A DNA stretch of 17,486 bases, from assembly GCA_039589315.1 (NCBI GenBank), contig JBDHHQ010000096.1:1-17486 (forward strand). Reading direction: 5' to 3'. The DNA is from Gemmatimonadota bacterium. Its GTDB lineage: Bacteria > Gemmatimonadota > Gemmatimonadetes > Longimicrobiales > Gaopeijiaceae. A model generated the notes under the pieces. The model had not been told where the DNA came from and did not search any database. It saw only the letters and a list, made by a program, of their open reading frames with translations. How positions within the stretch are numbered: the stretch's first letter is position 1; each line of letters starts with the position of its first letter. The translations under genes were made by a program, and so were the position numbers. Below, one piece after another: positions 3,390-17,486 of the stretch.

Positions 3390-4196
3390 TTGCCGGACCA
3401 GCTTGAACTCACCCCCGCGGCCTTCCGGACGGTCACGGAGGTCGCCGTTCCCGGGCCAGTGCCCAGAATCGCCCATCCGGAGTGGTCGCGGGCGTTTCCG
3501 TGGCTGTGCCAGGGATCCACCATTCCGGGACCCGATCGGGCTTTCGACATGGGCCTTTTCGGTGTGTCTCCGAGCAGCGAGGTCCAGGGTCGGTGGGCCA
3601 GCCTGGCCGAGAGCGTGGGCTTCCCTCGGGTGGTGCACGCGCGTCAGGTGCACGGCGCCCGTATCGCCGTGCACGAGGTAAAGGTCGAGGTGGAGGCCGC
3701 CGGGCGGTGGGTGGCGGGAGAGTACGACGGTCACGTGACCCGGGTCCCCGGCACGCTGCTGACGGTGGCCACCGCCGACTGCGTGCCGGTTTCGGTGGTG
3801 GACCCGGAGCGCCGGGCAGTGGGCCTCCTCCACGCCGGGTGGAGGGGCACCGTCGCCGGCGTACTGGAAGCCGGCTTGGCCGTCCTGGCCTCGGCGACGT
3901 CGGTGCCAGCCGCCACCTGCCACGTCCACCTGGGCCCGGCCATATGCGGGGACTGCTACGAGGTAGGTCCGGAGGTCCACGAGGCGCTGGGACTACCGGT
4001 GCCCGCCGAGCCGACCCCCGTGGACCTCCGGTCGAATCTCGCCCGCCGGGCAGTTGCGGCTGGCGTTGCCGCGCGGAACGTCAGCGTCTCCTCGCTGTGC
4101 ACGCGCTGCGGCGACGGTGGGCTGTATTCTCACCGCGCCGGCGACCGGGGCCGGCAGGTGACCGTGCTCGGCATCGTGCCGGAACGGCGCCCGTGA
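3390..4196 (+). CDS. pgeF: PgeF/YfiH-family protein (laccase-like domain, purine nucleoside phosphorylase-type)
   Basis: QVHG, TADCVPV, HAGWRG, LGPAICGDCYEVG, CT...YSHR...GRQ motifs; His-Cys-His triad intact. AGGAGG at 3379-3384 precedes TTG 3390. Confidence 0.92.
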   Translation: MPDQLELTPAAFRTVTEVAVPGPVPRIAHPEWSRAFPWLCQGSTIPGPDRAFDMGLFGVSPSSEVQGRWASLAESVGFPRVVHARQVHGARIAVHEVKVEVEAAGRWVAGEYDGHVTRVPGTLLTVATADCVPVSVVDPERRAVGLLHAGWRGTVAGVLEAGLAVLASATSVPAATCHVHLGPAICGDCYEVGPEVHEALGLPVPAEPTPVDLRSNLARRAVAAGVAARNVSVSSLCTRCGDGGLYSHRAGDRGRQVTVLGIVPERRP

Positions 4197-4384
4197 CGCC
4201 CCCGCGGGTGGGTCTCTGCGCCGCTTGTTTGCACCTCCGGGTTGTGCAGAGCCGGACCGGCTCACGATTCTCCCTGTGCCGGCGGTCCAAGACGGATAGC
4301 CGTTTTCCGCGGTACCCGGAGCTGCCCGTGCTCCGGTGCACCGGCTTCGAGGCGCGCGACCCACCGACGGAGAGAAGCGAATGA
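4193..4384 (+). CDS. Small 63-aa Cys-rich hypothetical protein (C9xxC12, C29, C49), possibly metal-binding
   Basis: MTPPRVGLCAACLHLRVVQSRTGSRFSLCRRSKTDSRFPRYPELPVLRCTGFEARDPPTERSE. GTG start overlaps the pgeF stop (GTGA 4193-4196) and its stop overlaps the next ATG (ATGA 4381-4384), so it fills the gap exactly. It appears in the ORF track only as the tail of 3482..4384. Confidence 0.8.
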   Translation: MTPPRVGLCAACLHLRVVQSRTGSRFSLCRRSKTDSRFPRYPELPVLRCTGFEARDPPTERSE

Positions 4385-4854
4385 CCGATCCGTTCTACGT
4401 GGCCGAAACCGAGGTCCGGAAGATCCGCGGCGTTCACAGGAGGGCCCGGCTGGGAGACGGCACGTCCGTCGATTTCGGTGTTCACGGGACGATCAGGTCG
4501 TACTACGGGCTGGACGACGAGCCCAACCTGCCGCTCCCGGTGGACTACGTCGTCGCCGCCGCCGCCGGCTGACTGCTGGGAACCCTCAACGGCGCACTGG
4601 AGGTGCGCGGGATCAAGCTGGCCCCCGAGGCGCTTCGCTCCACCGCCAGGGGCATCAACGAGCTGAGGGACCGGATTCCGGTTCTGACCCGGATCGAGGT
4701 TCACTACCAACTGCGCATTCCCCGGGGAAGTCGCAGCACGGTGGATCGCGCCCTCACCCGGCACGTCGACAAGTGTCCGACGGCCCAATCCCTGAAGGGG
4801 GCCGTGCACGTGACGTGGACGGCCGAGATCGTGGAGGAGCAGACGGAGGGCTGA
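4381..4854 (+). CDS. OsmC/Ohr-family protein, predicted selenoprotein (157 aa; in-frame TGA at 4570-4572 read as Sec64)
   Basis: Track ORFs 4336..4572 and 4603..4854 are in one frame, separated only by a TGA. Read-through gives ...PLPVDYVVAAAAG-U-LLGTLNGALEVRGI...LTRIEVHYQL...RALTRHVDKCPTAQSLKG. This matches the OsmC pattern P.E/D....A.agC followed by CP...SL, with TGA at the first Cys. GGAG at 4369-4372 lies 8 nt before ATG 4381. Confidence 0.88.
4573..4618 (+). promoter_or_regulatory. Candidate bacterial SECIS element
   Basis: Upper stem GCGCAC (4592-4597) pairs perfectly with GTGCGC (4603-4608) around loop TGGAG (4598-4602). There are 25 nt between the TGA and the loop, and the loop has G at position 2. 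A lower stem CCC 4583-4585 / GGG 4609-4611 is possible. Folded by eye only. Confidence 0.7.
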
Positions 4855-5112: not shown

Positions 5113-6675
5113 ATGCCGCACATCCTCTCGGTAGCGGTCCTGGTACTCACGGCCGCGGTGCTCGCGCTGCTCCTGCCGTTCGCGACGCACCGGTCGTATC
5201 TGCTTTGGCTGGCGTACGGCCGGCGGCGCGGCGATCACCGGGCCGAGCCCCCCGGGCGCCGTCCACGGGTGGATCCTCTCCCCCGGGTGACGATCCAACT
5301 GCCGATCTACAACGAGCGTGCCGTGGTGGCGCGCCTGATCGACGCGGCGTGTCAGGTCGACTATCCCCAGGACCTGCTCGAGGTACAGGTCCTGGACGAC
5401 TCCAACGACGAGACCGTGGAGCTGGCAGCTGCACGGGTGGCCCACTGGCGATCCCGCGGGCTGCGGGTGGACCACGTGCGCAGGGCGGAGCGGACCGGCT
5501 TCAAGGCGGGCGCGCTGGCGAACGGCGCCGCCAGCGCCCGGGGAGAGTTCCTCCTGGTGCTGGACGCCGATTTCGTGGCGCCCCCGGACCTCGTCCGGTC
5601 CCTCCTGGAGCCCTTCCAGGATCCGGCCGTGGGGATGGTGCAGGCCCGGTGGGATCATCTGAACGAGACGGAGAACGGACTCACCCGTGCCCAGGCGTCG
5701 TTCCTCGACGGACACTTCTACTTCGAGCAGGGCGGCCGGTACCATGGGGGGCGCTTCTTCAACTTCAACGGCACGGGCGGGATGTGGCGGAAGACCTGCC
5801 TGATGGACGCCGGCGGGTGGCAGGCGGACACCCTCACGGAAGACCTGGACCTGAGCTACCGGGCACAGATGCGCGGCTGGCGCTTCGTCTTCCTGGAGGA
5901 CGTGGGCGTGCCCGGCGAGATCCCGGCCTCCGTGAGCGCCTTGAAAGTGCAGCAGCGGCGATGGTCCCAGGGGGGTATCCAGACGGCCCGGAAGGTCCTG
6001 CCCGACCTCCTCCGCGGTCCCTGGCCTCTGTCCGTGAAGGGTGAGGCCGTCATCCACCTGGGCGGCCACATCGCCCACCCGCTGACGCTCATGCTCGGCC
6101 TGCTCCTGTTCCCCTCGGCCGTAGCTCGTCGGGGCCTGGGACTCGAGGAGTACCTCTTCCTGGACCTGGTGGTCTTCGCCATGGCCACGTTGCCGTTCAT
6201 GGTCTTCTACGCGGCGGCGGCGCGCCGGAGGGGCAAGCCCTGGCGAGGGATGGTTGGCAGGGTGGTGGGTGTGCTGTCCGTGGGCATCGGGCTTTCGGCG
6301 CCCGTGAGTCGCGCCGTTGCGCGCGGCCTGCGTGGTACGCCGGATCCCTTCGTGCGCACCCCCAAGCAGGGCTGGGAAACGAGGGCCGGGTACCGTGCTC
6401 CGGGGGCGGCGCGCGATGTGGCCTTCGAGCTGGGTCTGGCGGGGCTGATGCTGTCGTATCTGGTTGCCGCGATGGCGGGCGGCTACTACGCCTCCATTCC
6501 GTTCATCGCCCTATTCGCCTCCGGCTATCTGCGCCTGGGCCTGGGCGGCCTCTCCTCCGCCGGTTCCGCGGCGGCGGATCGCGTCGAAGAGCAAGAGGCC
6601 CCAGAAGGGCAGCCAGATCACCGCCCGAGCCCACGCGGGCTGCGGCCAGTCGCCGGTCTCGTGGTAGGCGGATAG
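5113..6675 (+). CDS. Cellulose synthase-like family 2 glycosyltransferase, membrane-bound
   Basis: VTIQLPIYNE, VLDDS, GFKAGAL, LDADF, VQARW, FNGTGG.WR, LTEDLDL and QQRRW (D,D,D,QxxRW signature); one N-terminal and several C-terminal hydrophobic helices; F.RTPK motif. Confidence 0.92.
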   Translation: MPHILSVAVLVLTAAVLALLLPFATHRSYLLWLAYGRRRGDHRAEPPGRRPRVDPLPRVTIQLPIYNERAVVARLIDAACQVDYPQDLLEVQVLDDSNDETVELAAARVAHWRSRGLRVDHVRRAERTGFKAGALANGAASARGEFLLVLDADFVAPPDLVRSLLEPFQDPAVGMVQARWDHLNETENGLTRAQASFLDGHFYFEQGGRYHGGRFFNFNGTGGMWRKTCLMDAGGWQADTLTEDLDLSYRAQMRGWRFVFLEDVGVPGEIPASVSALKVQQRRWSQGGIQTARKVLPDLLRGPWPLSVKGEAVIHLGGHIAHPLTLMLGLLLFPSAVARRGLGLEEYLFLDLVVFAMATLPFMVFYAAAARRRGKPWRGMVGRVVGVLSVGIGLSAPVSRAVARGLRGTPDPFVRTPKQGWETRAGYRAPGAARDVAFELGLAGLMLSYLVAAMAGGYYASIPFIALFASGYLRLGLGGLSSAGSAAADRVEEQEAPEGQPDHRPSPRGLRPVAGLVVGG

Positions 6676-7869
6676 CCCCCAGTAGCCCAGGAAGATGAGG
6701 CCGGTCAGGAGGATCCACGGCCGGTTCGACCGCAGCGCCGCGAAGGGGAGCACCCAGAGGACGTACCACGGATGCACGGTCGGCGACAGGGCCAGTCCGG
6801 CCCCGAGGATCCAGAAGAGAGCCCGCTCCGCGTCGAAGCGACGCACCGTGGCGAAAGCGATCACACTCAACACCAGTAGTCCCGCCAGCAACCGGGGCCT
6901 CCGGCCTCCCTCGCCGGCGACGGCTTCGAGGAGGAGGAATGCCCCTTCGTTGGCCCGCCAGTCCCGGGCATAGGTGGCGAGCCCCCGCCACAGGGCAGGT
7001 CCCGCACCCAGGTAGGGGAGGTAGAACAGCAGGCCGACGACGCCGGCGGTCACGGCGAGCTTCCAGCCGTGGCGCCGGACCAGAGGCGGCAGCGCAGCGG
7101 CCGGCGCGAACTTGGTGAGCGTGGCCAGCGCCAGGAGGGCACCGGTGACCGCGGCGGGCGCGGTGCCCCGTGGTCGACCGCCGGCGGCAACGGAGACCGA
7201 CAACAGCGCGGCCATCCAGAAGAGCCCCAGAACCTCGACGTGGCCGCTCCACGCCGTCTCCACGATGAGCAGCGGCGACCACAGATACAGAACGGCGACC
7301 ACGCCGACGCTTCGTCCGGTCCGCCCGGCGACGCGGAGGAGTATGGCCGCCGTCGCCAGATCGAGGGCCAGCCAGAGGAGCTTGGCAGCAAGTATCGAGC
7401 TCCCGGCCACCGCCACGAGCACGAAGGCCAGCTGGGCGGCCGGCGGGTAGATCGTGGAGATGCCCGGATGATTGATGAGACCGTGCCACGGCGTGCGGAT
7501 GGCGGCGAGCGCAGGGTCGTCGGGGGCGTAGATGTAGGGGTTGACGCCCGAGAGCTGGACGTGACCGTCCCAGAGGTAGCGATACACGTCGTCCGAGAGC
7601 TCTGGCGAGAGGGGGATCAGGGCCAGCCGAAGGACGATCGCCATGCCCCAGACGAGGCGCAGGTCGACCCTTCGCCCCTGGTCCGCCATGTTCGCGGTGG
7701 TGGCCCGGGGCGCGGGCGAGGCGACCAAGGTCGCCGCCCACGCGTAGGCCGCGAAGGCGACGAAAAAGAGGAGGAGTCCCGGAAAGGGCTCGGGGCGACC
7801 GGGCTGCCACCCGAGGACCGCCAGGGCCACGAGCTCCACGGAGCCAGCCAGGATCAGGATACGGTGCAC
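6511..7869 (-). CDS. Multi-pass membrane glycosyltransferase, GT87/DUF2029-like (GT-C fold)
   Basis: LSDDVYRYLWDG, GVNPY, TIYPPAAQ, YLWSPLLIVE...GH.E, TKFAP, TVHPWY motifs and many hydrophobic segments. Likely start is GTG 7869 (MHRILILAG) with GGAG 7 nt upstream; the track start at 8166 would overlap the divergent GT2. Confidence 0.8.
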   Translation of the reverse strand: MHRILILAGSVELVALAVLGWQPGRPEPFPGLLLFFVAFAAYAWAATLVASPAPRATTANMADQGRRVDLRLVWGMAIVLRLALIPLSPELSDDVYRYLWDGHVQLSGVNPYIYAPDDPALAAIRTPWHGLINHPGISTIYPPAAQLAFVLVAVAGSSILAAKLLWLALDLATAAILLRVAGRTGRSVGVVAVLYLWSPLLIVETAWSGHVEVLGLFWMAALLSVSVAAGGRPRGTAPAAVTGALLALATLTKFAPAAALPPLVRRHGWKLAVTAGVVGLLFYLPYLGAGPALWRGLATYARDWRANEGAFLLLEAVAGEGGRRPRLLAGLLVLSVIAFATVRRFDAERALFWILGAGLALSPTVHPWYVLWVLPFAALRSNRPWILLTGLIFLGYWGLSAYHETGDWPQPAWARAVIWLPFWGLLLFDAIRRRGTGGGEAAQAQAQIAGGE

Positions 7870-7959
7870 CCCCACACTCCCCGTTCGCGAGACGTCGACG
7901 GCGCTGCAGCCACGGGCTCCGCGCCTCACCCCCAGCCGGACCCCCCCTCGGCAGGCACG

Positions 7960-8664
7960 GTGGCCGTTCTCATCCCTGCGCTGAACGAAGAGGCGTCCCT
8001 GCCCGGTGTCCTCGCCGCCATCCCCAGGGATACCGTCCAACATGTGGTCGTAGCCGACAACGGGTCCACTGACCGCACCGCGGAGGTGGCCCGGGACAGT
8101 GGAGCCACCGTCGTGGCCGAGCCCCGGCGGGGGTACGGCGCCGCCTGTCTGGCGGGACTGACGCATCTGGCTGATCTACCAACCGCTCCGGCGGTCGTGG
8201 CGTTCCTGGACGCGGACCAGAGCGACGACCCGGGCGAGATCCGCCGCCTCGTAGACCCGATCCTGGCGGGGACGGCGGACATGGTGATCGGGATCCGCGA
8301 GAGCGCGGGCGGGGGTCAACGAAGCGTTCCCGCGCACGCACGTCTGGGGAACGCGCTGGTGCTGGGCCTGGCCCGCGTGCTGTTCGGAGCCCGCTTCCGG
8401 GACCTGGGGCCGTACCGGGCCATCCGCTTCGAGTCGCTCCGCTCCCTGGAGATGGACGACCAGAATTGGGGATGGACGCTCCAGATGCAGATTCGCGCCG
8501 CGCTGCGAGGCCTGCGGGTGCTGGAGATTCCCGTGAGCCACCGGGAGCGGGCCGCGGGCACATCCAAGGTGTCCGGCTCTGCGATCGGCTCGGTTCAGGC
8601 CGGCGGCAAGATGCTGTACACCCTGGTCAGGGAGCGTCTGCGAGCGCCTCGAGGAAGTCGCTGA
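7960..8664 (+). CDS. Family 2 glycosyltransferase, DPM1-like (polyprenol-phosphate sugar synthase type)
   Basis: VAVLIPALNEE, VVADNGSTDRT, RGYGAAC, FLDAD.SDDP, F.DLGPYRAI, WGWTLQMQ, SKVSG. Start is uncertain (GTG 7960, or in-frame GTG 7864). The track extension to 7069 is antisense to the GT87-like gene. Confidence 0.88.
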   Translation: MAVLIPALNEEASLPGVLAAIPRDTVQHVVVADNGSTDRTAEVARDSGATVVAEPRRGYGAACLAGLTHLADLPTAPAVVAFLDADQSDDPGEIRRLVDPILAGTADMVIGIRESAGGGQRSVPAHARLGNALVLGLARVLFGARFRDLGPYRAIRFESLRSLEMDDQNWGWTLQMQIRAALRGLRVLEIPVSHRERAAGTSKVSGSAIGSVQAGGKMLYTLVRERLRAPRGSR

Positions 8665-9469
8665 CGAGCTGAAGTGAGCGGTGCGGTACCTCGTCGGGCG
8701 GTAGGTGGCCGCAGCCCTCCAGCATCGCCAATTCTGCCCGCGGCAGCGTCGCCGCCAGCCGCTCACCGACCCACGGTGGAATCACCCGGTCCTGGTTACC
8801 CCAGATCAGCTTGGCCGGGATGTCCAGCTCCGGGTAGCGGGCCACGATGCTATCCAGGTCGGGTGGCACGATCCGCCGTGCCGTGGAGATGAGGGCGTAG
8901 CGGGCGTCGGGTTCGGCCAGGGGGTGGGCATACCCATCGACCATGTCCTGGGTCACGCACGCCCTGTCGTGCACGATGGCCCGCAGAACCAGCCGGACCA
9001 GCCCGCGGGGAGGGGAGCGTCTGAGGCTCGAGATGGGGATGGGAGGGAGGCGGGCCATCCCGATGAAGCGAGGCACCCGCTGGGGGAAGGAGGCGCTGGC
9101 GATCAGAACGAGGGCCCGAACCCGGTGTAACGCGCCAGCGTCCAGCAACCGCAGGGCGGTGAGCAGCGCGACTCCGCCTCCCAGGGAATGTCCGACCAGC
9201 GTGACACCGTCGAGGGCGCGCTCGTCCAGCAACCCGTGCACCGCAGCCGCGTGATCGTGGGGGGAATAGCGGTCATCCCGGGGGGCGGGAGATCGGCCGA
9301 ATCCTTTCAGGTCGGCCACGTGAACGTGATGGGTGCGGGCGAGCGTGGGTACCCAGTGTCTCCATGTGAAGCCGCTGCCTCCGAAGCCGTGGAGCAGGAG
9401 CAACGGCCTACCCTGCCCGTGCTCCTCCACGTGAAGGCGGGGCAGGGAGATGTCGCGTGGGGTCTTCAA
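8627..9469 (-). CDS. Alpha/beta fold hydrolase
   Basis: LLLHGFGG, DLKGFG.S, nucleophile elbow GHSLGG, WGNQD (acid), GCGH (His). Probable TTG start at 9469 overlaps the upstream TGA (TTGA 9469-9466). Confidence 0.9.
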   Translation of the reverse strand: MKTPRDISLPRLHVEEHGQGRPLLLLHGFGGSGFTWRHWVPTLARTHHVHVADLKGFGRSPAPRDDRYSPHDHAAAVHGLLDERALDGVTLVGHSLGGGVALLTALRLLDAGALHRVRALVLIASASFPQRVPRFIGMARLPPIPISSLRRSPPRGLVRLVLRAIVHDRACVTQDMVDGYAHPLAEPDARYALISTARRIVPPDLDSIVARYPELDIPAKLIWGNQDRVIPPWVGERLAATLPRAELAMLEGCGHLPPDEVPHRSLQLVSDFLEALADAP

Positions 9470-12024
9470 CCCGCGCCCTCGAGGGTACGGAGGCGGCCCG
9501 CCTCCAGCGGCACGACGCAGCCGCCCAGCCGTTCGAGTGCCGACTCCACGTCGCGGTGGCACGTGAACACGAACACCTGCCGGTCCTCAGCCAGCCGTGC
9601 CATCAGCTCGATGCCCCGCGAGCGCCGGTCTTCGTCCCAGTTCACGAACACCTCGTCCACAAAAACCGGTAGCCGCTCTCCACCCACGTCGAGCTCGTCC
9701 ACCGCGGCGAGGCGAAGCGCCAGATATGCCTGCTCCCGCGTTCCGGTGGAGACGCCGCCGTCCAGTGACACGGCGTGCTGATACCCGTCGCCGCGGAGCT
9801 TGAAGATCTCCCGGTCAGCTTCCTCTGCCGAGACGATACGGCTGTAGCGGCCTTCGGTGATGTGGGTCAGGTAGTCGCCGGCTCGCCGAAGGACGCGCGG
9901 CTGACGCTCCTCTCGGAATCGATGGTCGGCCAGCCGAATCAGCCGGGCGAGAAGGACCTTCCGGTCCCGCTCCCTGGCCAGCTCGGCCCTCTCTTCGCGC
10001 AGAGCCAGGAGCTCGCCGTCGACCTCGTCCGGATCGGGCTGCTCCCGGAGCCGGACGATGGACTGCTCGTCACGTTCGAGGCTCCGGCCCAGCTCCTCGA
10101 TGCCGCGCGTGAGGTCCACACGCCGACGCTGGAGCGCCGTCAGGGCATGGGGGTCCCGGGTCCACGGCTCGCCGGCTTGCACGGCCCGTTCGATCTCGGC
10201 CTGGAGCTGACCCAGGTCGGAGTGGCTGCGAGCCAGCTCTCGCCGGAGCTCCCGGGCGGTGCTCAGGGCGGTGCGCCGCTCGACCGCCACGCCTGCGCCC
10301 CTGTCGGGATCGCCGTCGCCCAGGGTAGACAGCCGCGCCTCCAGCGCAGCCTGGGCCGCTTCGGCCTCCGCGAGCTCCCGCTCGGCCCCCGCACGGCCGG
10401 CTCCCAGCCGTGCCGTGGCCTCGCCGGGAGCCACCGATGGGACGACCGATCCAGCGGCGGGCTCTACCGCTGCGGGAGTCGCTGCGTCGAAGCCCAGGGT
10501 CAATTGGCCCTGCGACGTTCCGTCCGAGTCCGACTCCCTGGGGGCGAGACCCACGTCCAGTGCCATGGCGAGCTGACCGGTCAGGTCTCTCTCCAGCTCC
10601 TGGAGCCGCTGGAGGAGTGCCGGTAGCTCCAAGGTCGGAGCCTCCACGACCTCGCCACGAAGGGAAAGACGCGCCACGGTGGACGTGAACGCGGCGCGGG
10701 TCCGCGCCTCGGTCGCGATGAGATCGGCCGCTCCGGTTTCCGGCCCAGCCTCCACGGCCACGCCCTGGCTCCCTCGCCGCAGGGCGAGAAGCATCCACAC
10801 CCCGACCGCCACCGCTCCCGCGCCCAGCGCGATCAAGCCACTGCGGCCGAGCGCGACGCCAGCCGTGGCGACTGCCGCCCCGGCTGCCGCCACTCCCGCC
10901 GCCAGTCGGCGTCGCCCGGTGGGCCGCGGAAGCTCGGTGGGCGGGGAGGCCGATCGCGCCTCAGCCAGACGGACGGCGTCCCGTGCCGCCAGGTACTCCC
11001 GCAGGCGCTCCCTGACGGCAACCGGACTCGCGCCCCGGATGGCGGCGCGGTCGGCGTCCGTCCACTCCCGGCCGAACAGCTCCTCGCTGATGGAGCGGGC
11101 GCGCCGATGATTCTCGCGGAGGGCGCTTTCGAGCCCCTCCAGCTCCTGCACCCGGGCGGCCAGCGTGCGGGAGCGCGCCCGGAGTCCGGCGAGGTGGTCC
11201 GCCGGATCGGCCGGAAGCTCGGCCAGCTCCGCGGGATCTCCTGCAGCCCGCTCGAGCTCTTCGATCCTCTTTGACTGTCGGTGCACCGGGAGCAGTCGGG
11301 TGAGGCGTCCCTCCAGGCGCTGGATCTCCAGGCGCTCCCCGTTGGCGCCCTCGAGCCGCTCCTTGCCGTCGTGGACCCGGCTCACGAGCGCGCGGACCTG
11401 CCGGTCCCGCTCGAGAGCCTCCTCACGCCGTCCCTCGACCGCGCGGATGCGTTCCCCGATCAGGCGGATCCTCTGCTTCCCTCTCCGGTTGGGGCGCCAC
11501 AGCGCGCCCGCCTCGTCCTCGAGCTGCTTCGCCGCGTCCCTGGGAGACACGAGATCCCTGGCCCCCATCGCGCTGACGAGTCGGTCCTGAACCTTCGACC
11601 AGCTCCCAGCCTCGAGCGCCGCCACCTCCGCGAGGGTCAGGGCGAACACCTGGCGGAAGACCGTGCGGGGCAGCCGCTCCACCAGGCCCACTGAGCGGTT
11701 CCGCAGGTCCTCCTCGCGGTCCCCCAGCGTGAGACGGCCCACGGGCGTGCCGCCCAGCCGCCTGTGCACCTCGATGGACTGGCCATCCGCCGTGTGGATC
11801 CAGACGGTTCCCTCCGCGTCCTCTCCACTCCAGGGTGCGTCACGGTTCTGCTCCCGGTTGGCCGGCTGAAAACCGTACAGTAGGGAGGTCAGGAACCGGA
11901 AGAAGGTGCTCTTACCGGCCTCGTTGGGACCCGTGACGACGACCAGGTCACCCAGGGCGCCGGGCCCCGTGTCCAAACCTTCGATACGGCCGAACCGCCG
12001 CACGTGGATCCGGTCCAGCCTCAT
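9466..12024 (-). CDS. YhaN-like (SbcC/Rad50-type) coiled-coil ATPase
   Basis: N-terminal MRLDRIHVRRFG, Walker A GPNEAGKST, long coiled coils, signature-like VSTGTREQAYLALRLA, Walker B/D-loop LPVFVDEVFVNWD, H-loop FTCH. ATG 12024 overlaps the upstream stop (ATGA). Confidence 0.9.
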   Translation of the reverse strand: MRLDRIHVRRFGRIEGLDTGPGALGDLVVVTGPNEAGKSTFFRFLTSLLYGFQPANREQNRDAPWSGEDAEGTVWIHTADGQSIEVHRRLGGTPVGRLTLGDREEDLRNRSVGLVERLPRTVFRQVFALTLAEVAALEAGSWSKVQDRLVSAMGARDLVSPRDAAKQLEDEAGALWRPNRRGKQRIRLIGERIRAVEGRREEALERDRQVRALVSRVHDGKERLEGANGERLEIQRLEGRLTRLLPVHRQSKRIEELERAAGDPAELAELPADPADHLAGLRARSRTLAARVQELEGLESALRENHRRARSISEELFGREWTDADRAAIRGASPVAVRERLREYLAARDAVRLAEARSASPPTELPRPTGRRRLAAGVAAAGAAVATAGVALGRSGLIALGAGAVAVGVWMLLALRRGSQGVAVEAGPETGAADLIATEARTRAAFTSTVARLSLRGEVVEAPTLELPALLQRLQELERDLTGQLAMALDVGLAPRESDSDGTSQGQLTLGFDAATPAAVEPAAGSVVPSVAPGEATARLGAGRAGAERELAEAEAAQAALEARLSTLGDGDPDRGAGVAVERRTALSTARELRRELARSHSDLGQLQAEIERAVQAGEPWTRDPHALTALQRRRVDLTRGIEELGRSLERDEQSIVRLREQPDPDEVDGELLALREERAELARERDRKVLLARLIRLADHRFREERQPRVLRRAGDYLTHITEGRYSRIVSAEEADREIFKLRGDGYQHAVSLDGGVSTGTREQAYLALRLAAVDELDVGGERLPVFVDEVFVNWDEDRRSRGIELMARLAEDRQVFVFTCHRDVESALERLGGCVVPLEAGRLRTLEGAG

Positions 12025-13286
12025 CGGCCGTCTCGCTCCGCTCGACCGTCCTGCTTCCACAGGCGCGTCAGAAGCTCGGTCTGGGCCCCTGGCAGCAGAG
12101 TCCGCAAGTAGCCCTGAGCGTCGCGAACCTCCTCCAGATGGGGAAGCGCCAGCTCGTGCTCCGGGATTTCGGGGAGCGGCTCGGCTCCCTCCCGAATCGC
12201 GGCCGCCAGGCGCAGGACCTCACCCAGGACGTCGGGCCGTTCGACATGCTCGTCCACGTCCAGAACGGCGTGCACCCCGGGTGCGAGCACGTCGCACCAG
12301 AGGAGACCGAGACGGCTCGAGACAGCCTGTCCGAGGGCGCTTCGCTCGTCTTCCAGAGAGAGGGCGCGCCAGAGGGGGCACGGGCCGGAGAGCGTCACCT
12401 GCGCCAACGTGGCTTCTGGCTCGGGGTCTGCTGCGCCCTGGTCTCCCTCCCACGCCTCGGCCACCCGATCGACGAGCTCCTCCACGCTCTGACACGTCTC
12501 GAGGCCTCCCACCGACAAGCGAGCCCAGCGGATGGGCGCCAGGTCGTGGAATCGCACCACCGGACGGTTGGGCACGGAGAGGTCCACGCTCAAGCATCCC
12601 CGCGGGCCGTCCTCCCGCGGATTCCTGCCCTGAACGTTGCCCGGGTAGTGGATCGGAGGATCCGCCGAAAGCTCCTGCCGCAGGTGCACGTGGCCCAGGG
12701 CCCAGTAGTGGTATCCGGCTGTGCGGAGCTGGCCGAGCACCGACGGCGCGTAGGGCTCGTGTGTGACCTCGTCCAGGGAGCCCCTCACCTGCGTGTGAAG
12801 GAGGGCCACCTCGGGCAGCTCCCCGGTAGGCCGGGGAAGCCGTTGGGAGAGGTCGTCGGTCTCCCGCGCCGACGCGTGCCCCACCGCCGTCACGAACCCC
12901 AGCGGCTGGCCGTCGCGAGATCGGACGGCGACCCTTCGGGGCTCGTGATCCGGGATCACGGCCACGCCGTCGGGCCACCCCATCTCCAGGGAGCGAGAGC
13001 CGGGGGCTCCGGGGTCGTGATTACCGGTGGCGTACACGACCTGCACGCCCGCCTCCGCCAGCCGGGACAGCTGCTCCATGAGCAGGGACTCGGTCTCGAA
13101 GGAGACACGACGCCCGTCGAAGAGATCGCCAGCGATGAGAAAGGCGTCCACCTGCTCCTGGAGAGCCAGCTCGACGGCCCGCGAGAAAGCCGAACGCGTA
13201 GCTGCCCTGAGTCGCTTGCGCACCATGGGCGAGCGGGTGGAGAACGGCGTGTCCAGATGGACGTCTGCGATGTGGACGAAGCGCAT
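12021..13286 (-). CDS. YhaO-like (SbcD/Mre11-type) metallophosphoesterase, DNA repair nuclease
   Basis: MRFVHIADVHLD, IAGDLFD, GNHD, ALLH, YWALGHVH, YPGNVQGR...E.G.RG. Start at ATG 13286. Confidence 0.92.
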   Translation of the reverse strand: MRFVHIADVHLDTPFSTRSPMVRKRLRAATRSAFSRAVELALQEQVDAFLIAGDLFDGRRVSFETESLLMEQLSRLAEAGVQVVYATGNHDPGAPGSRSLEMGWPDGVAVIPDHEPRRVAVRSRDGQPLGFVTAVGHASARETDDLSQRLPRPTGELPEVALLHTQVRGSLDEVTHEPYAPSVLGQLRTAGYHYWALGHVHLRQELSADPPIHYPGNVQGRNPREDGPRGCLSVDLSVPNRPVVRFHDLAPIRWARLSVGGLETCQSVEELVDRVAEAWEGDQGAADPEPEATLAQVTLSGPCPLWRALSLEDERSALGQAVSSRLGLLWCDVLAPGVHAVLDVDEHVERPDVLGEVLRLAAAIREGAEPLPEIPEHELALPHLEEVRDAQGYLRTLLPGAQTELLTRLWKQDGRAERDGR

Positions 13287-13483
13287 CCTGCAATCGGTCG
13301 GAAGCTTCGGGCTCTGTCGAAGGTGTCCGGTCGGGTCGGGCGGCACCATGGGGCAGGGTCCGTGCCGGAGCCCTCCCGTCATGGTCGCGCTACCGAAGAA
13401 GTCCCGCAAGTGGCCGGCGAGCAGGTGCGTGCGCCCGTCGCTACGCCACGCCCCCACCGGACGACTCTCACGGACGTGCCGGG

Positions 13484-13512: not shown

Positions 13513-13641
13513 ACGCGCAATTCAGCGAGTATCCGGCGGGCGTCTCCCACATGAACCCGGGGAGCGCCCGAAACTTATGTGGCCGAGCAAAGCGAGTGCC
13601 GTGCACACCCGGCGAATTGCCGATCCCACAGTCGCCTCGCC

Positions 13642-16600
13642 ATGACCGACCCCGGTAGGACGGCCGCGGAGCGCGGCCGGGACACCTCCCCCGTCGTTGA
13701 CGCGGTCTGCCGTCAGCTGGAGCGCCAGGTCGACGCGACGGACGCCGAGCTGGCCGCTCGCTTCGCAGAGCTCTTCCTGGGCAAGGCCCCTCCAGAGTTC
13801 CTCCAGGGGCGCAGCGCGGACCAGCTGGCGCACCTGACCCGGGGCGCGTTCGAGTTCCTGAAGCAGGGGCACCCCGACCGGGTGGATGTCCAGGTCTTCA
13901 ATCCCGACGTCGACAACGAGGGCTGGTATGCCCCGGTCACCGTCGTCCGGACCAACATCTCCGAGCGCCCCTTCATCGTCGACTCCCTGCGGGAGTTCCT
14001 CAGCGCCCAGGACATGGCCATCGCGCACCTGATCTATCCTCTCCTGCATGTGGAGCGGCACGACCAGGGGACCATCGTCGACATCCGTTCCTCTCGCGAG
14101 GGTGTCCGGCGGGAGTCGGTGATTCACTGCGAAGTGGCCCGGTGCGCGGACGAGGAGATGCTCGACTTCCTTCGCGAGGAGACCGCTCGCCGGCTGCAGG
14201 ACGTCGTAAGGGCCACCGACGACTTCGGGGCGATGTTGGAAGCGGCGCGGCGAACCCACGACACCCTGGGTGCCCGCATCGAAGACCTGCCGGAACGAAG
14301 AGACGAGCTCACGGAGATCCAGGCATTCCTGCAGTGGCTGCAGGACGAGGCGTTCGTCTTCCTCGGTTACAGGGGCTACGACCTCGTGCGGGACGAGGGG
14401 GGTCACATGTCGATCCTGGTGGAGCCGGGCTCGGGTCTGGGAATCCTGCGGAACGAGGCGGAATCCGCGTTCGCGGAGCCGGTCCGACTCGACGAGATCC
14501 CAGAGGGGATTCGAGGGCTGGTCGAAGGCGGCCCCGTCCTCATCATCTCGAAGACGAACGCCGAGTCGACGGTGCACAGGCGTGCCCGGATGGACTACAT
14601 CGGCGTCAAGAAGCTGGCTCCCGACGGCACGGTCAGGGGCGAGCATCGCTTCATCGGGCTCTTCACCTCACGCGTGTACGCCGCTGACGCCGAGCACGTC
14701 CCGATCTTGCGTAGGAAGCTGGATCAGATCCTGAGCGCGGCCGGGGTCCTGGCAGGCTCCCACGACTACAAGGAGATCAACACGATCTTCAACTCCATGC
14801 CGAAGGAGGAGCTGTTCCTCACCTCGGCAGAGGAGGTCGGGGCCGACATCCAGACCGTCATGACGACGTACCGCACCGAGGAGGTGCGGGTAACGCTCCG
14901 CGACGATCCGTTGAGCCGGGGCGTGGCCGTCATGGTGGGCGAGCTGCTCAACTATCACCTGGCTCTGGGCGAGGGCGATCAAGCCAGGCTGCACTTCCAT
15001 ATCGGAACCACTCCCGAGAAGCTGGGCCGTGTGGAGGCCTCCGAGCTCGAGCGCGTCGTGCACGAGCTCATCCGTTCCTGGGCGGACCGTGTCCGGGAGG
15101 GTCTGGAACGTGTCCGACCACCCGACGAGGCCCGTCGCCTAGCACGCATCTACGGCGACGCGTTCAGCGGCGAGTACAGGGCCGCTACGCCCCCGAGGGT
15201 GGCCGTTCGGGACATCCTCGAGCTCCAGGCCATGCAGGCCGACGGGCGCATGATCGCGATCTCGTTGGAGAACCGTGGCGCGGAGGCGGCCGCCGGCGTG
15301 GAGGAGCCGTTCACGGAGCTCAAGGTCTATCTGCGAGGCGAGCGTCTGGTCCTCTCCGACTTCATGCCGATCCTCGAGAATGCCGGGCTGCGAGTGATCG
15401 CCGTGAACCCCTTCGACGTGAAGGGCGAGGGCGCGCCCAACGCGACGGTCTATTCCTTCTCCGTCCAGAACGCGCAGGGACTACCCCTCGACGTTCGGGG
15501 GCGGGGCACCCTGTTGGCCGACACGATCCTGGCGGTTCGGGCCGGCGATGCGACCAACGATCGGGTGAACACCCTCGTGATCTCGGCGGGGCTGGCCTGG
15601 CGAGAGGCCGACGTGCTGCGGAGCTACTGTTCGTACGCGTTCCAGATCGGTGCCGCGCCGACGAGGGCGACCTTCTGGACGGCGCTCAACAAGCACCCCG
15701 AGATCGCACGCATTCTCTTCGACCTGTTCGAGGCGCGCTTCGATCCGGAGGGCCTGGGGACCCTCGAGGAGCGTGCGGAGGCCGCGGAGGACATCCGGTC
15801 GGCCTTTCAGCAAGCTCTCTCCGGCGTGGACCTGTTGGGGGAGGACCGGGCGCTTCGGCGGCTGGCGGTCCTCATCGAGGGCACGGTGCGCACGAACTAC
15901 TACCGGAACGGAGGCGCGACACCCACCCGCCGCTCGGGCGGGGTCCCCTACATGTCGTTCAAGTTCGCCTCTGACAAGCTGGTGTCGGTGGTGCGCACGC
16001 GACTCAAGTATGAGGTCTGGGTTCGCTCGTCGAGGATGGAGGGCGTGCACCTCCGGGGCGCCAGGGTGGCCCGGGGCGGGATTCGTCACTCGGACCGACG
16101 AGACGACTTTCGCATCGAGATCCTGGGCCTGGTGAACACCCAGGTCGTGAAGAATGCGGTGATCGTGCCGGGCGGGTCGAAGGGCGGCTTCGTCACGCTC
16201 CGGACGATGGCTGGCGTGGACGCCATGCGCGAGGAGAGCGGGGAACAATACAAGACACTCATGCGGGGGCTGCTGGACCTGACGGACAACATCCAGGACG
16301 TTCGCACGGTGCCCCCTGAGAACGTCGTGTGTTGGGACGAGCCTGACCCGTATCTGGTCGTCGCCGCCGACAAGGGCACGGCCACCCTTTCGGACGTGGC
16401 GAACGGCGTTGCCGAGGAGTACGGATTCTGGCTGGGTGACGCTTTCGCGTCTGGTGGCTCCCACGGGTACGACCACAAGAAGGTGGGGATCACGGCGCGC
16501 GGCGCATGGGAGGGCGTGAAGCGTCACTTCCGCGAGAAGGGCAAGGACATCCAGGCCGAGCCGTTCACGGTCGTGGGCATCGGCGACATGAGTGGCGACG

Positions 16601-17486
16601 TCTTCGGCAACGGTATGCTCCTCTCGGAGCAGATCAAGCTCCTGGCGGCCTTCGACCATCGCCACGTCTTCATCGACCCGGATCCGGACCCGGCCTCCTC
16701 GTTCGCCGAACGGAAGCGACTGTTCGAGCTGGGTCGGTCGAGTTGGGACGACTACGACCGCAGTGCCTTGAGTCCCGGGATGGATGGGGAGTCGCTCGTG
16801 CGCAGCGTGTTGAGGGCGCCGGGGGAGCTGCTCTGGAACGGGGGCATCGGCACCTATGTGAAGGCGTCCACCGAGATTCAGGCCGACGTGGGTGATCCGT
16901 CCAACGACGCGGTCCGGATAGACGTGCCACAGCTCCGGGTGGAGGTGGTCGGCGAGGGCGGCAACCTCGGGCTCACCCAGGCCGCCCGCATCGAGTACGC
17001 GCTGCGCGGCGGACGGATCAACACCGACGCCCTGGACAACTCGGGTGGCGTGGACCTTTCGGACCGGGAGGTCAACCTCAAGATCCTTCTGAGTGCCGGG
17101 TCCGAGGGGTCGATGAGCCAACGCAACGCGCTCCTGGAGGACCTTACCGACGCGGTGGCCGCGCTGGTTCTCAAGGACAACGAGTCCCAGAGCATGGCGA
17201 TCTCCCTGGACGAGATCCGCGCACGGGAGTCGGCCGACGACTTCAGGGGCCTCATGTCCAGCCTGGAACGGGCGGGAGAGCTGGACCGGCAGGCCGAGCA
17301 CCTGCCCACCCTGGAGGCCCTCGTCGAACGAATGGAGGGGGGGAGCACCCTCTGCCGCCCCGAGCTGTGCGTGTTGCTCGCGTACGCGAAGCTGAACCTC
17401 AAGGCCCACATCCTGCGAAGTCCGCTTCCCGACGACCCTGCCGCGACCAGCTACCTGTTGGGGTACTTCCCCGCCGCGGCGGTGCG
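13642..17486 (+). CDS. gdhB: Large NAD-specific glutamate dehydrogenase (GdhB/Gdh2 type), 3' end outside the window
   Basis: Frame +1 is open from ATG 13642 to the window end (absent from the track because no stop is reached). Motifs RPFIVDS, STVHRRARMDYIGVK, RFIGLFTS, EGVHLR...VARGGIR.SDR..DFR.EILGL, KNAVIVPGGSKGGF, DPYLVVAADKGTA, DAFASGGS.GYDHK, GIGDMSGDVFGNG, LLWNGGIGTYVK, EGGNLG, NTDALDNSGGVD. Confidence 0.95.
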   Translation, partial: MTDPGRTAAERGRDTSPVVDAVCRQLERQVDATDAELAARFAELFLGKAPPEFLQGRSADQLAHLTRGAFEFLKQGHPDRVDVQVFNPDVDNEGWYAPVTVVRTNISERPFIVDSLREFLSAQDMAIAHLIYPLLHVERHDQGTIVDIRSSREGVRRESVIHCEVARCADEEMLDFLREETARRLQDVVRATDDFGAMLEAARRTHDTLGARIEDLPERRDELTEIQAFLQWLQDEAFVFLGYRGYDLVRDEGGHMSILVEPGSGLGILRNEAESAFAEPVRLDEIPEGIRGLVEGGPVLIISKTNAESTVHRRARMDYIGVKKLAPDGTVRGEHRFIGLFTSRVYAADAEHVPILRRKLDQILSAAGVLAGSHDYKEINTIFNSMPKEELFLTSAEEVGADIQTVMTTYRTEEVRVTLRDDPLSRGVAVMVGELLNYHLALGEGDQARLHFHIGTTPEKLGRVEASELERVVHELIRSWADRVREGLERVRPPDEARRLARIYGDAFSGEYRAATPPRVAVRDILELQAMQADGRMIAISLENRGAEAAAGVEEPFTELKVYLRGERLVLSDFMPILENAGLRVIAVNPFDVKGEGAPNATVYSFSVQNAQGLPLDVRGRGTLLADTILAVRAGDATNDRVNTLVISAGLAWREADVLRSYCSYAFQIGAAPTRATFWTALNKHPEIARILFDLFEARFDPEGLGTLEERAEAAEDIRSAFQQALSGVDLLGEDRALRRLAVLIEGTVRTNYYRNGGATPTRRSGGVPYMSFKFASDKLVSVVRTRLKYEVWVRSSRMEGVHLRGARVARGGIRHSDRRDDFRIEILGLVNTQVVKNAVIVPGGSKGGFVTLRTMAGVDAMREESGEQYKTLMRGLLDLTDNIQDVRTVPPENVVCWDEPDPYLVVAADKGTATLSDVANGVAEEYGFWLGDAFASGGSHGYDHKKVGITARGAWEGVKRHFREKGKDIQAEPFTVVGIGDMSGDVFGNGMLLSEQIKLLAAFDHRHVFIDPDPDPASSFAERKRLFELGRSSWDDYDRSALSPGMDGESLVRSVLRAPGELLWNGGIGTYVKASTEIQADVGDPSNDAVRIDVPQLRVEVVGEGGNLGLTQAARIEYALRGGRINTDALDNSGGVDLSDREVNLKILLSAGSEGSMSQRNALLEDLTDAVAALVLKDNESQSMAISLDEIRARESADDFRGLMSSLERAGELDRQAEHLPTLEALVERMEGGSTLCRPELCVLLAYAKLNLKAHILRSPLPDDPAATSYLLGYFPAAAV

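Follow-up and report, generated by a model that had tools for sequence, protein, structure and literature searches.

A reading frame interrupted by UGA at codon 64

The window, the whole 17.5-kb contig that was analyzed (genome 6.67 Mb, 67% GC, 95% complete), contains two short same-frame ORFs separated by one TGA, raising the question of whether the locus carries two small genes, a decayed gene, or, as proposed in an earlier note made from the DNA letters alone, a single gene in which UGA is read as selenocysteine (Sec). The named records closest to the window in sequence are from Gemmatimonadota, presumably its own phylum. Translation confirmed the split at codon 64: positions 4381-4854 (+) comprise 63 residues, a TGA (4570-4572), 93 further residues and a TGA stop (4852-4854). 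As had also been claimed, C132 (TGT, 4774-4776), within DKCPTAQSL, is the sole Cys of the joined 157-aa product. The suggested HMM check with PF02566 gave 47.3 bits for the read-through product (cut-off 27.5) over residues 51-146, spanning the break, and in an AlphaFold2 model residue 64 falls within the central helix (residues 53-75). The main features of the gene are as follows.

4381..4854, forward strand: single coding sequence, 157 aa with predicted Sec64, Ohr-like selenoprotein of the OsmC/Ohr fold (translation, PF02566, AlphaFold2 and fold matches)
4570..4572, forward strand: in-frame UGA, predicted Sec64, at the peroxidatic-Cys position (conservation among homologs and loci)
4369..4374, forward strand: putative ribosome-binding site GGAGAG, 6 nt 5´ of the ATG (sequence)

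A sigma-70 promoter was sought for the selenoprotein gene and none was found, the one weak terminator-like site (4203-4220) was at chance level, and an Rfam search of the window gave no match.

Conservation of column 64 and the selenocysteine machinery

The earlier note had proposed to check whether homologs have Cys or TGA at column 64, and the protein matches favor its reading. We examined 120 listed matches among 1573, of which 32 are 120 aa or longer; among the matches listed, column 64 of these full-length homologs is Cys in 31 and Gly in one, and column 132 is Cys in all 32. That gene callers would split the gene at the TGA was likewise borne out, as 88 of the 120 listed matches are called fragments beginning at position 65 or 66, and 13 complementary N-terminal pieces of 58-64 aa were present among 150 matches listed.

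Conservation of the TGA in relatives had been set beforehand as a test. We observed TGA at column 64 in 28/28 family loci from 61 relatives (leaving out the weaker loci L049 and L050, an ordinary OsmC and a non-aligning match), in 73/74 GTDB loci, the remaining one being TGC, and in 20/20 loci checked among 50 matches from Acidobacteriota, the phylum of genome G345. The equivalent column is TGA in 15/15 loci of a second, paralogous clade, a set that partly overlaps the 28 loci from relatives. TGA is present in 49/50 of the Acidobacteriota matches (the other, a partial one, begins at position 66) and within 77/77 matches from 201 sampled genomes of the same phylum as the window (exact position not verified singly). 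The same TGA occurs in a same-genus genome whose protein is 93% identical. Column 64 was never TAA or TAG in the family, GTDB, second-clade and Acidobacteriota loci checked.

The genome search for selA, selB, selC and selD called for in the earlier note detected all four, with selA (531 bits), selB (335), selD (370) and tRNA-Sec (75.1 bits) over their cut-offs; the selD gene has an in-frame TGA of its own. Among the 61 relatives, selA or selB was found in 27 of the 28 carriers, the exception being G008 (78% complete). The 201 genomes of the phylum, each at least 90% complete, include 49 carriers, all of them among the 162 selA-positive genomes, and the selenoprotein gene is present in 0/39 genomes lacking a selA match, although kin in this sample are not independent. 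The 162 include one unpublished genome, G208, on which the 49/49 count does not depend. A second phylum had 45 carriers among 251 sampled genomes. Two TGA carriers gave no selA match, G008, in which no Sec machinery was seen, and G349, a genome of unstated completeness that was searched for selA alone. The single GTDB locus with a Cys codon (TGC) sits in a selA-bearing genome. Each computable refutation test favors Sec, and on these comparisons the UGA at codon 64 is almost certainly decoded as selenocysteine.

A SECIS-type hairpin downstream of the UGA

4592..4608, forward strand: predicted bacterial SECIS-type hairpin, 7-bp stem, GGA loop at 4599-4601 (folding, covariation and codon constraint)

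The loop of this hairpin lies 26 nt downstream of the UGA, and the predicted folding energy is -9.7 kcal/mol. The published bSECIS model describes a loop of 3-9 nt with a G, a stem of 4-16 bp, a distance of 16-37 nt from the UGA and an energy of -7.5 kcal/mol or lower (PMC13188914), and the 4592-4608 hairpin agrees with every one of these constraints. In our version of the model, 9.75% of 4000 random TGA triplets in the same genome carry a fitting hairpin, so the hairpin alone is weak evidence; the hairpin region alone also folds no better than shuffles.

Comparison across the family was more informative. Over 89 distinct TGA sequences, 98.7% of cells are paired, a figure favored by derivation of the structure from the same 89 sequences, and 33 cells are changed on both sides (25 A-U/G-C, 4 G-C/C-G and 4 others). 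None of 500 shuffles reached this covariation, and slid controls paired at 70% at most. Some of the compensatory stem changes swap amino acids (Val/Ala at residue 75). Synonymous codon choice collapses solely over codons 71-77: L73 is CTG in 94/96 sequences, whereas L66 is CTC in 49 and CTG in 35 and L125 is likewise a mix of CTC and CTG. In all three Cys genes for which DNA was available, L73 is CTC, which removes the first loop-side G, and in two the stem is also weakened, though the Cys gene L115 still has 7 pairs at the hairpin position. A strict search for the Cys-codon DNA pattern matched only 2 metagenome loci, which leaves three genes as the Cys control for the hairpin. Loci L062 and L064 keep the TGA and have a degenerate loop. 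The 17-nt hairpin core has just two sites in the window's own genome, in the selenoprotein gene and in its paralog. Together, the covariation and codon constraint indicate that the hairpin is very likely a conserved, unusually clean SECIS-type element.

Predicted fold and active-site residues

The AlphaFold2 model, built from a 31-row alignment (pLDDT 94.5), has its elements arranged as in OsmC, plus an additional helix at residues 36-41. OsmC/Ohr-family chains rank first in both Foldseek and VIA searches with this predicted model, and VIA rows 1-33 are all of this family. The best VIA match is 2onf (Z 15.9, rmsd 2.0, 138 residues aligned), followed by 1ml8, 2d7v, 6mjn and 2egt and then by Ohr and OsmC proper at Z 12-14, with unrelated folds from 7.9. 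The modeled fold is that of OsmC/Ohr. Sec64 and Cys132 are 68 residues apart, and a Cys pair separated by about 60 residues is a hallmark of the family (PMC5384416). The conserved residues that we consider for the active site are listed here.

4438..4440, forward strand: Arg20, conserved, candidate active-site residue (R in 125/126)
4474..4488, forward strand: FGVHG, signature motif of the subfamily, containing invariant His35 and located in the loop that follows strand 3 (alignment and model)
4540..4545, forward strand: Val54-Asp55, with Val at the Ohr/OsmC catalytic Glu position and Asp55 invariant (alignment to 1ukk and 1qwi)
4762..4776, forward strand: His128-x3-Cys132 (H..KCP), predicted resolving Cys and conserved His (both 126/126)

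Invariant or near-invariant positions in 126 family sequences are Y6, R20, G33, H35, D55, T68, L73, R76, H128, C132 and P133, and H35, D55, H128 and both Cys positions are kept in most of 62 distant representatives. His35 is found in 126/126 family sequences and in 44/62 of the distant ones, and its FGVHG motif is flanked in the model by a strand at 29-32 and the helix at 36-41. An N-terminal FGVHG...YYG segment had been singled out in the earlier note; the FGVHG portion is conserved, and conservation of YYG fails. By sequence and model, Arg20 would lie just past the turn between strands 1 and 2 and His35 in the loop after strand 3, to be compared with the catalytic Arg in loop 1 of Ohr or loop 3 of OsmC.

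The note had also cited the OsmC/Ohr helix form P.E...AA.agC; in this protein the helix has P-V-D-Y, with V54 at the position of the Ohr/OsmC catalytic Glu. This position is Val in 110, Ile in 13 and Leu in 3 of the 126 family sequences and Glu in none. Asp55 is common to other Ohr-like proteins, and P-x-D/E is found in YhfA-like proteins. With the profiles for the two peroxidase subfamilies, TIGR03562 scored 17 bits against a cut-off of 85.8 and TIGR03561 gave no match at E 0.01. The label of OsmC/Ohr peroxidase is therefore upheld in part, with the redox pair and fold supported and the peroxidase assignment weakened by the absence of the catalytic Glu. Judged by the anatomy of its sequence, the predicted protein is an Ohr/OsmC-like two-residue redox enzyme outside both peroxidase subfamilies; given its likeness to the Ohr-like third group, which lacks this Glu, we can only infer peroxidase activity.

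Comparison with known OsmC-like proteins

OsmC-like selenoproteins are a known kind, as the earlier note correctly stated, and current views are not overturned here. They were reported in 2005 in the Sargasso Sea catalogue (PMC1088965), and the GOS catalogue likewise holds an OsmC-like selenoprotein (PMC2398784). A 2026 review has one OsmC-like entry (PF02566/COG1765, UxxT, MCS5647933.1; PMC13188914), the sequence of which is given in the deep-Sep supplement, 'OsmC' being absent from the main text of that paper (PMC12013277). The product of 4381-4854 resembles the Sargasso/GOS type in superfamily, in the register of Sec at the first catalytic Cys with P at -11 (by eye), in having no Glu at -10 and in retaining the second Cys. 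The motifs differ: the Sargasso/GOS sequences presented in these sources have GIGF-U-LLT and GCFAE and no FGVHG, whereas our product has AAAG-U-LLGT and H..KCPT, such that both UxxT and GCFAE are missing (U-L-L-G-T, KCPTA).

The best NCBIfam match of the product is NF041052 (OsmC_like_Se), at E 8e-5 and 22.6 bits against a cut-off of 95, and weak matches to this profile were obtained for 44/53 family members. No protein exceeded the cut-off in the 61 relatives, whose ordinary Cys OsmC-like proteins score higher than the family, or in 301 genomes of the phylum, a search in which the control gave no match either. We infer that NF041052 represents the Sargasso family. The low score and the differences in motif from the published representative sustain the earlier proposal of a distinct subfamily.

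Ohr and OsmC proper (TIGR03561 and TIGR03562; 1zb9, 1n2f, 1qwi, 1ukk), for which an Arg and a Glu are defining in addition to the Cys pair (PMC5384416), share the fold (Z 12-14) and a two-residue redox pair with our product, but their catalytic Glu is replaced by Val, Ile or Leu in the selenoprotein family. Proteins without the Arg and Glu, including structures from Thermoplasma and Aquifex, form a poorly characterized Ohr-like group (PMC5384416). With this third group (2onf Ta0195, 1ml8, 2egt, 2pn2, 1vla) the product shares a Cys-pair arrangement without the catalytic Glu and a P-x-D/E helix start; it differs in the replacement of Cys by Sec, in the FGVHG loop followed by helix 36-41, and in the conserved Arg20, His35 and His128. 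Identity to chains of the third group is only 10-19%.

FGVHG was not found in the GOS or deep-Sep supplements or in the part of the BSepDB supplement covered, the main text of the Haft and Gwadz preprint has no mention of OsmC, and no description of the subfamily was found in the literature consulted on OsmC or on Gemmatimonadota selenoproteins. BSepDB covers Gemmatimonadota and was built with iterated tblastn, and may hold these genes under 'OsmC-like'; existing catalogues (BSepDB, Haft and Tolstoy 2025) could already list the subfamily. In the sources compared, it appears uncatalogued, with a different active-site set. What emerges is a common, systematically mis-annotated selenoprotein subfamily whose members stand in public records as two fragments, and many annotations could be repaired with a dedicated profile.

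Two paralogous clades and their neighborhoods

In a tree of 185 proteins, from which three frameshift-like rows were excluded, the product of 4381-4854 falls in a 122-row clade (SH-aLRT 100) from Gemmatimonadota, Eisenbacteria and Acidobacteriota. Cys forms fall into several separate groups lying within the Sec forms, a pattern that, in a tree whose root was not assessed, suggests that Sec has reverted to Cys more than once. The second clade, whose proteins are ~35-40% identical to those of the first, has the TGA together with the same hairpin. The window's own genome has one gene of each clade, the two products being 38% identical, and two copies are present in 28 of the 49 carriers of the 201-genome sample.

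G000:C12:23056-23523 (L145:6057-6524), forward strand: paralogous Ohr-like gene, TGA at codon 66, same hairpin in a G-C version (sequence)
3390-4196 of the window, forward strand: PgeF/YfiH-like gene (PF02578), directly upstream of the selenoprotein gene, below both NCBIfam cut-offs

Phylogeny and motifs place these sequences, as we read them, in a separate subfamily that spans Gemmatimonadota, Acidobacteriota and Eisenbacteria and comprises two clades of paralogs. Neighborhoods track lineage, with no fixed partner gene in 74 GTDB and 15 second-clade loci. The pgeF gene is adjacent in 17/74 loci as well as at the window's own locus, sucA is adjacent in 9/74, a cytochrome c oxidase assembly cluster is near 14-17/74, and rimP-nusA-infB are near 11/74. 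We asked whether the neighboring sucA (lipoyl-dependent complex) or pgeF might be functionally linked to the selenoprotein gene, and rejected this as lineage synteny (9 and 17 of 74). In the second clade, thyX is near 7/15 loci, and the paralog in the window's genome is accompanied by thyX, a geranylgeranyl-reductase-like gene and an OmpA-domain gene.

Some neighborhoods deserve separate mention. In 13/74 loci (L109:8702-9643 and 12 other Gemmatimonadaceae), the selenoprotein gene has a PF06491 gene (BrxA/B-type disulphide isomerase) no more than ~4 kb away, possibly as a redox partner or possibly by mere synteny. At Eisenbacteria-type loci (L082-L129; 14-18/74), the neighbors of the selenoprotein gene are a squalene/phytoene synthase gene and the genes of a cytochrome c oxidase cluster (cox1, cox2, ctaA, ctaB-like). 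At L044 (G027:C49:10056-10506), a frameshift near residue 116 places the C-terminal part in another frame, through error or decay.

Proposed mechanism and alternative explanations

The explanation that we favor, with modest confidence, is that 4381-4854 is one gene whose UGA is read by means of the SECIS-type hairpin to give a 157-aa Sec64/Cys132 enzyme, most likely a hydroperoxide reductase. It is very probable that Sec64 and Cys132 are a redox pair, and hydroperoxide is slightly favored as the main substrate. By Ohr/OsmC chemistry, the protein would dimerize and the Sec64 selenolate would attack a hydroperoxide, giving a selenenic acid that Cys132 would resolve to a selenenyl-sulfide; a dithiol donor, in Ohr lipoylated proteins, would then re-reduce this bond. 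No gene for a reductant or partner recurs in the neighborhoods compared, which counts against this reading.

With the catalytic Glu of Ohr/OsmC absent, activation would rest on the low pKa of Sec together with the conserved Arg20, His35 and His128. Sec has a pKa of about 5.2 and is ionized at neutral pH. For the Xylella Ohr, loss of Glu51 shifts the pKa of the Cys upward, from 5.92 to 7.20, and the E51A and R19A variants have residual activity only (PMC5962072). As Glu51 lowers the pKa of Cys in Ohr and Sec is already ionized, Sec could make the Glu dispensable. The Cys members of the clade also lack the catalytic Glu, so Sec cannot be the whole compensation, and Arg20, His35 and His128 probably contribute to activation. 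Ohr peroxidases need an Arg-Glu pair, and the family lends itself to asking whether Sec together with histidines can do the work of that pair, the natural Cys revertants serving as controls.

We considered three other explanations. A genuine stop at the UGA, be it between two small genes, in a pseudogene or from an assembly error, is very improbable, as is decoding of the UGA as Trp or Cys. Databases do store the halves as separate proteins, codon 65 is ATG in 59/102 TGA loci, where TGA-ATG coupling is formally possible, and the two DNA sequencing data sets examined (word share 0.04, apparently one filed twice; no RNA set) contained only relatives' contigs, at <95% identity, and so do not bear on this organism's own reads or expression. 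However, codon 65 is CTG, CTA or CTC in 43/102 loci, including the gene studied here, and an SD-like motif precedes codon 1 in 62/70 TGA loci and codon 65 in 1/70. The break inside the modeled central helix, the lack of TAA or TAG at column 64 in the loci checked, the shared TGA in the same-genus genome and the strict co-occurrence with selA in 49/49 carriers also argue against a stop, and reading as Trp is excluded by TGA being the true terminal stop in 55/105 loci. An unlikely alternative of another kind is that His35, Asp55, His128, Sec64 and Cys132 form a metal site in a metal-binding or metal-dependent factor with no redox cycling. The invariance of H35, D55, H128 and C132 (126/126), largely kept in the 62 distant representatives, is in line with such a site, but the proximity of the residues is only presumed, Asp55 is shared with Ohr-like proteins generally, the Sec/Cys spacing is that of the ordinary redox pair of the fold, and no metal-handling genes recur nearby.

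Less probable than hydroperoxide reduction, though well ahead of the metal site, is that the same selenoprotein with the same Sec64/Cys132 pair acts on a non-hydroperoxide substrate, as an Ohr-like third-group member catalyzing thiol-disulfide or persulfide/selenosulfide exchange or sulfur transfer. The missing catalytic Glu (V/I/L in 126/126) and the identity of the nearest structures (2onf, 1ml8, 2d7v, 6mjn and 2egt, all uncharacterized Ohr-like proteins) point this way, as does the side-by-side presence of two Sec clades in 28/49 carriers, which suggests specialized roles. The third group is itself poorly characterized and peroxidase results for it are mixed, one laboratory having found TvOsmC, an Ohr-like protein without the Arg and Glu, to be inactive and another having found it active (PMC5384416). 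On the other hand, the characterized members of the fold are peroxidases (PMC5384416), Ohr and OsmC structures at Z 12-14 are near the Ohr-like ones, and no sulfur-metabolism genes recur in the neighborhoods. We regard as tentative, and rather doubtful, the broader idea of an uncatalogued family that acquired its Sec separately from the Sargasso type, is almost wholly Sec in Gemmatimonadota, Acidobacteriota and Eisenbacteria, often has two paralogs, uses His35, His128 and Arg20 in place of Arg-Glu, and acts on a non-hydroperoxide substrate; if true, it would open a first way into the function of the Ohr-like third group.

Other features of the window and genome

The selD gene of the same genome (G000:C5:69192-70112, L009) has its in-frame TGA in the context GAG-U-ACK, followed by GC-rich hairpins that differ from the OsmC-like hairpin in sequence and spacing. 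The region of the window at 5113-13457 encodes two GT2 glycosyltransferases, a GT87-like membrane protein, an alpha/beta hydrolase, an AAA_27 ATPase and an SbcD/Mre11-like nuclease, and no link between these genes and the selenoprotein was seen. Elsewhere in the genome, 18 co-oriented tRNA genes, of 50 tRNA calls in total, lie within ~2.7 kb (G000:C68:16206-18887, reverse strand); tRNA gene arrays are often found on mobile elements. The last gene of the window, at 13579-17484 (+), encodes a large NAD-glutamate dehydrogenase that runs off the contig. Its ACT2 match is limited to profile positions 42-89 and its catalytic domain is matched in two stretches, which may reflect in-frame deletions or assembly collapse.
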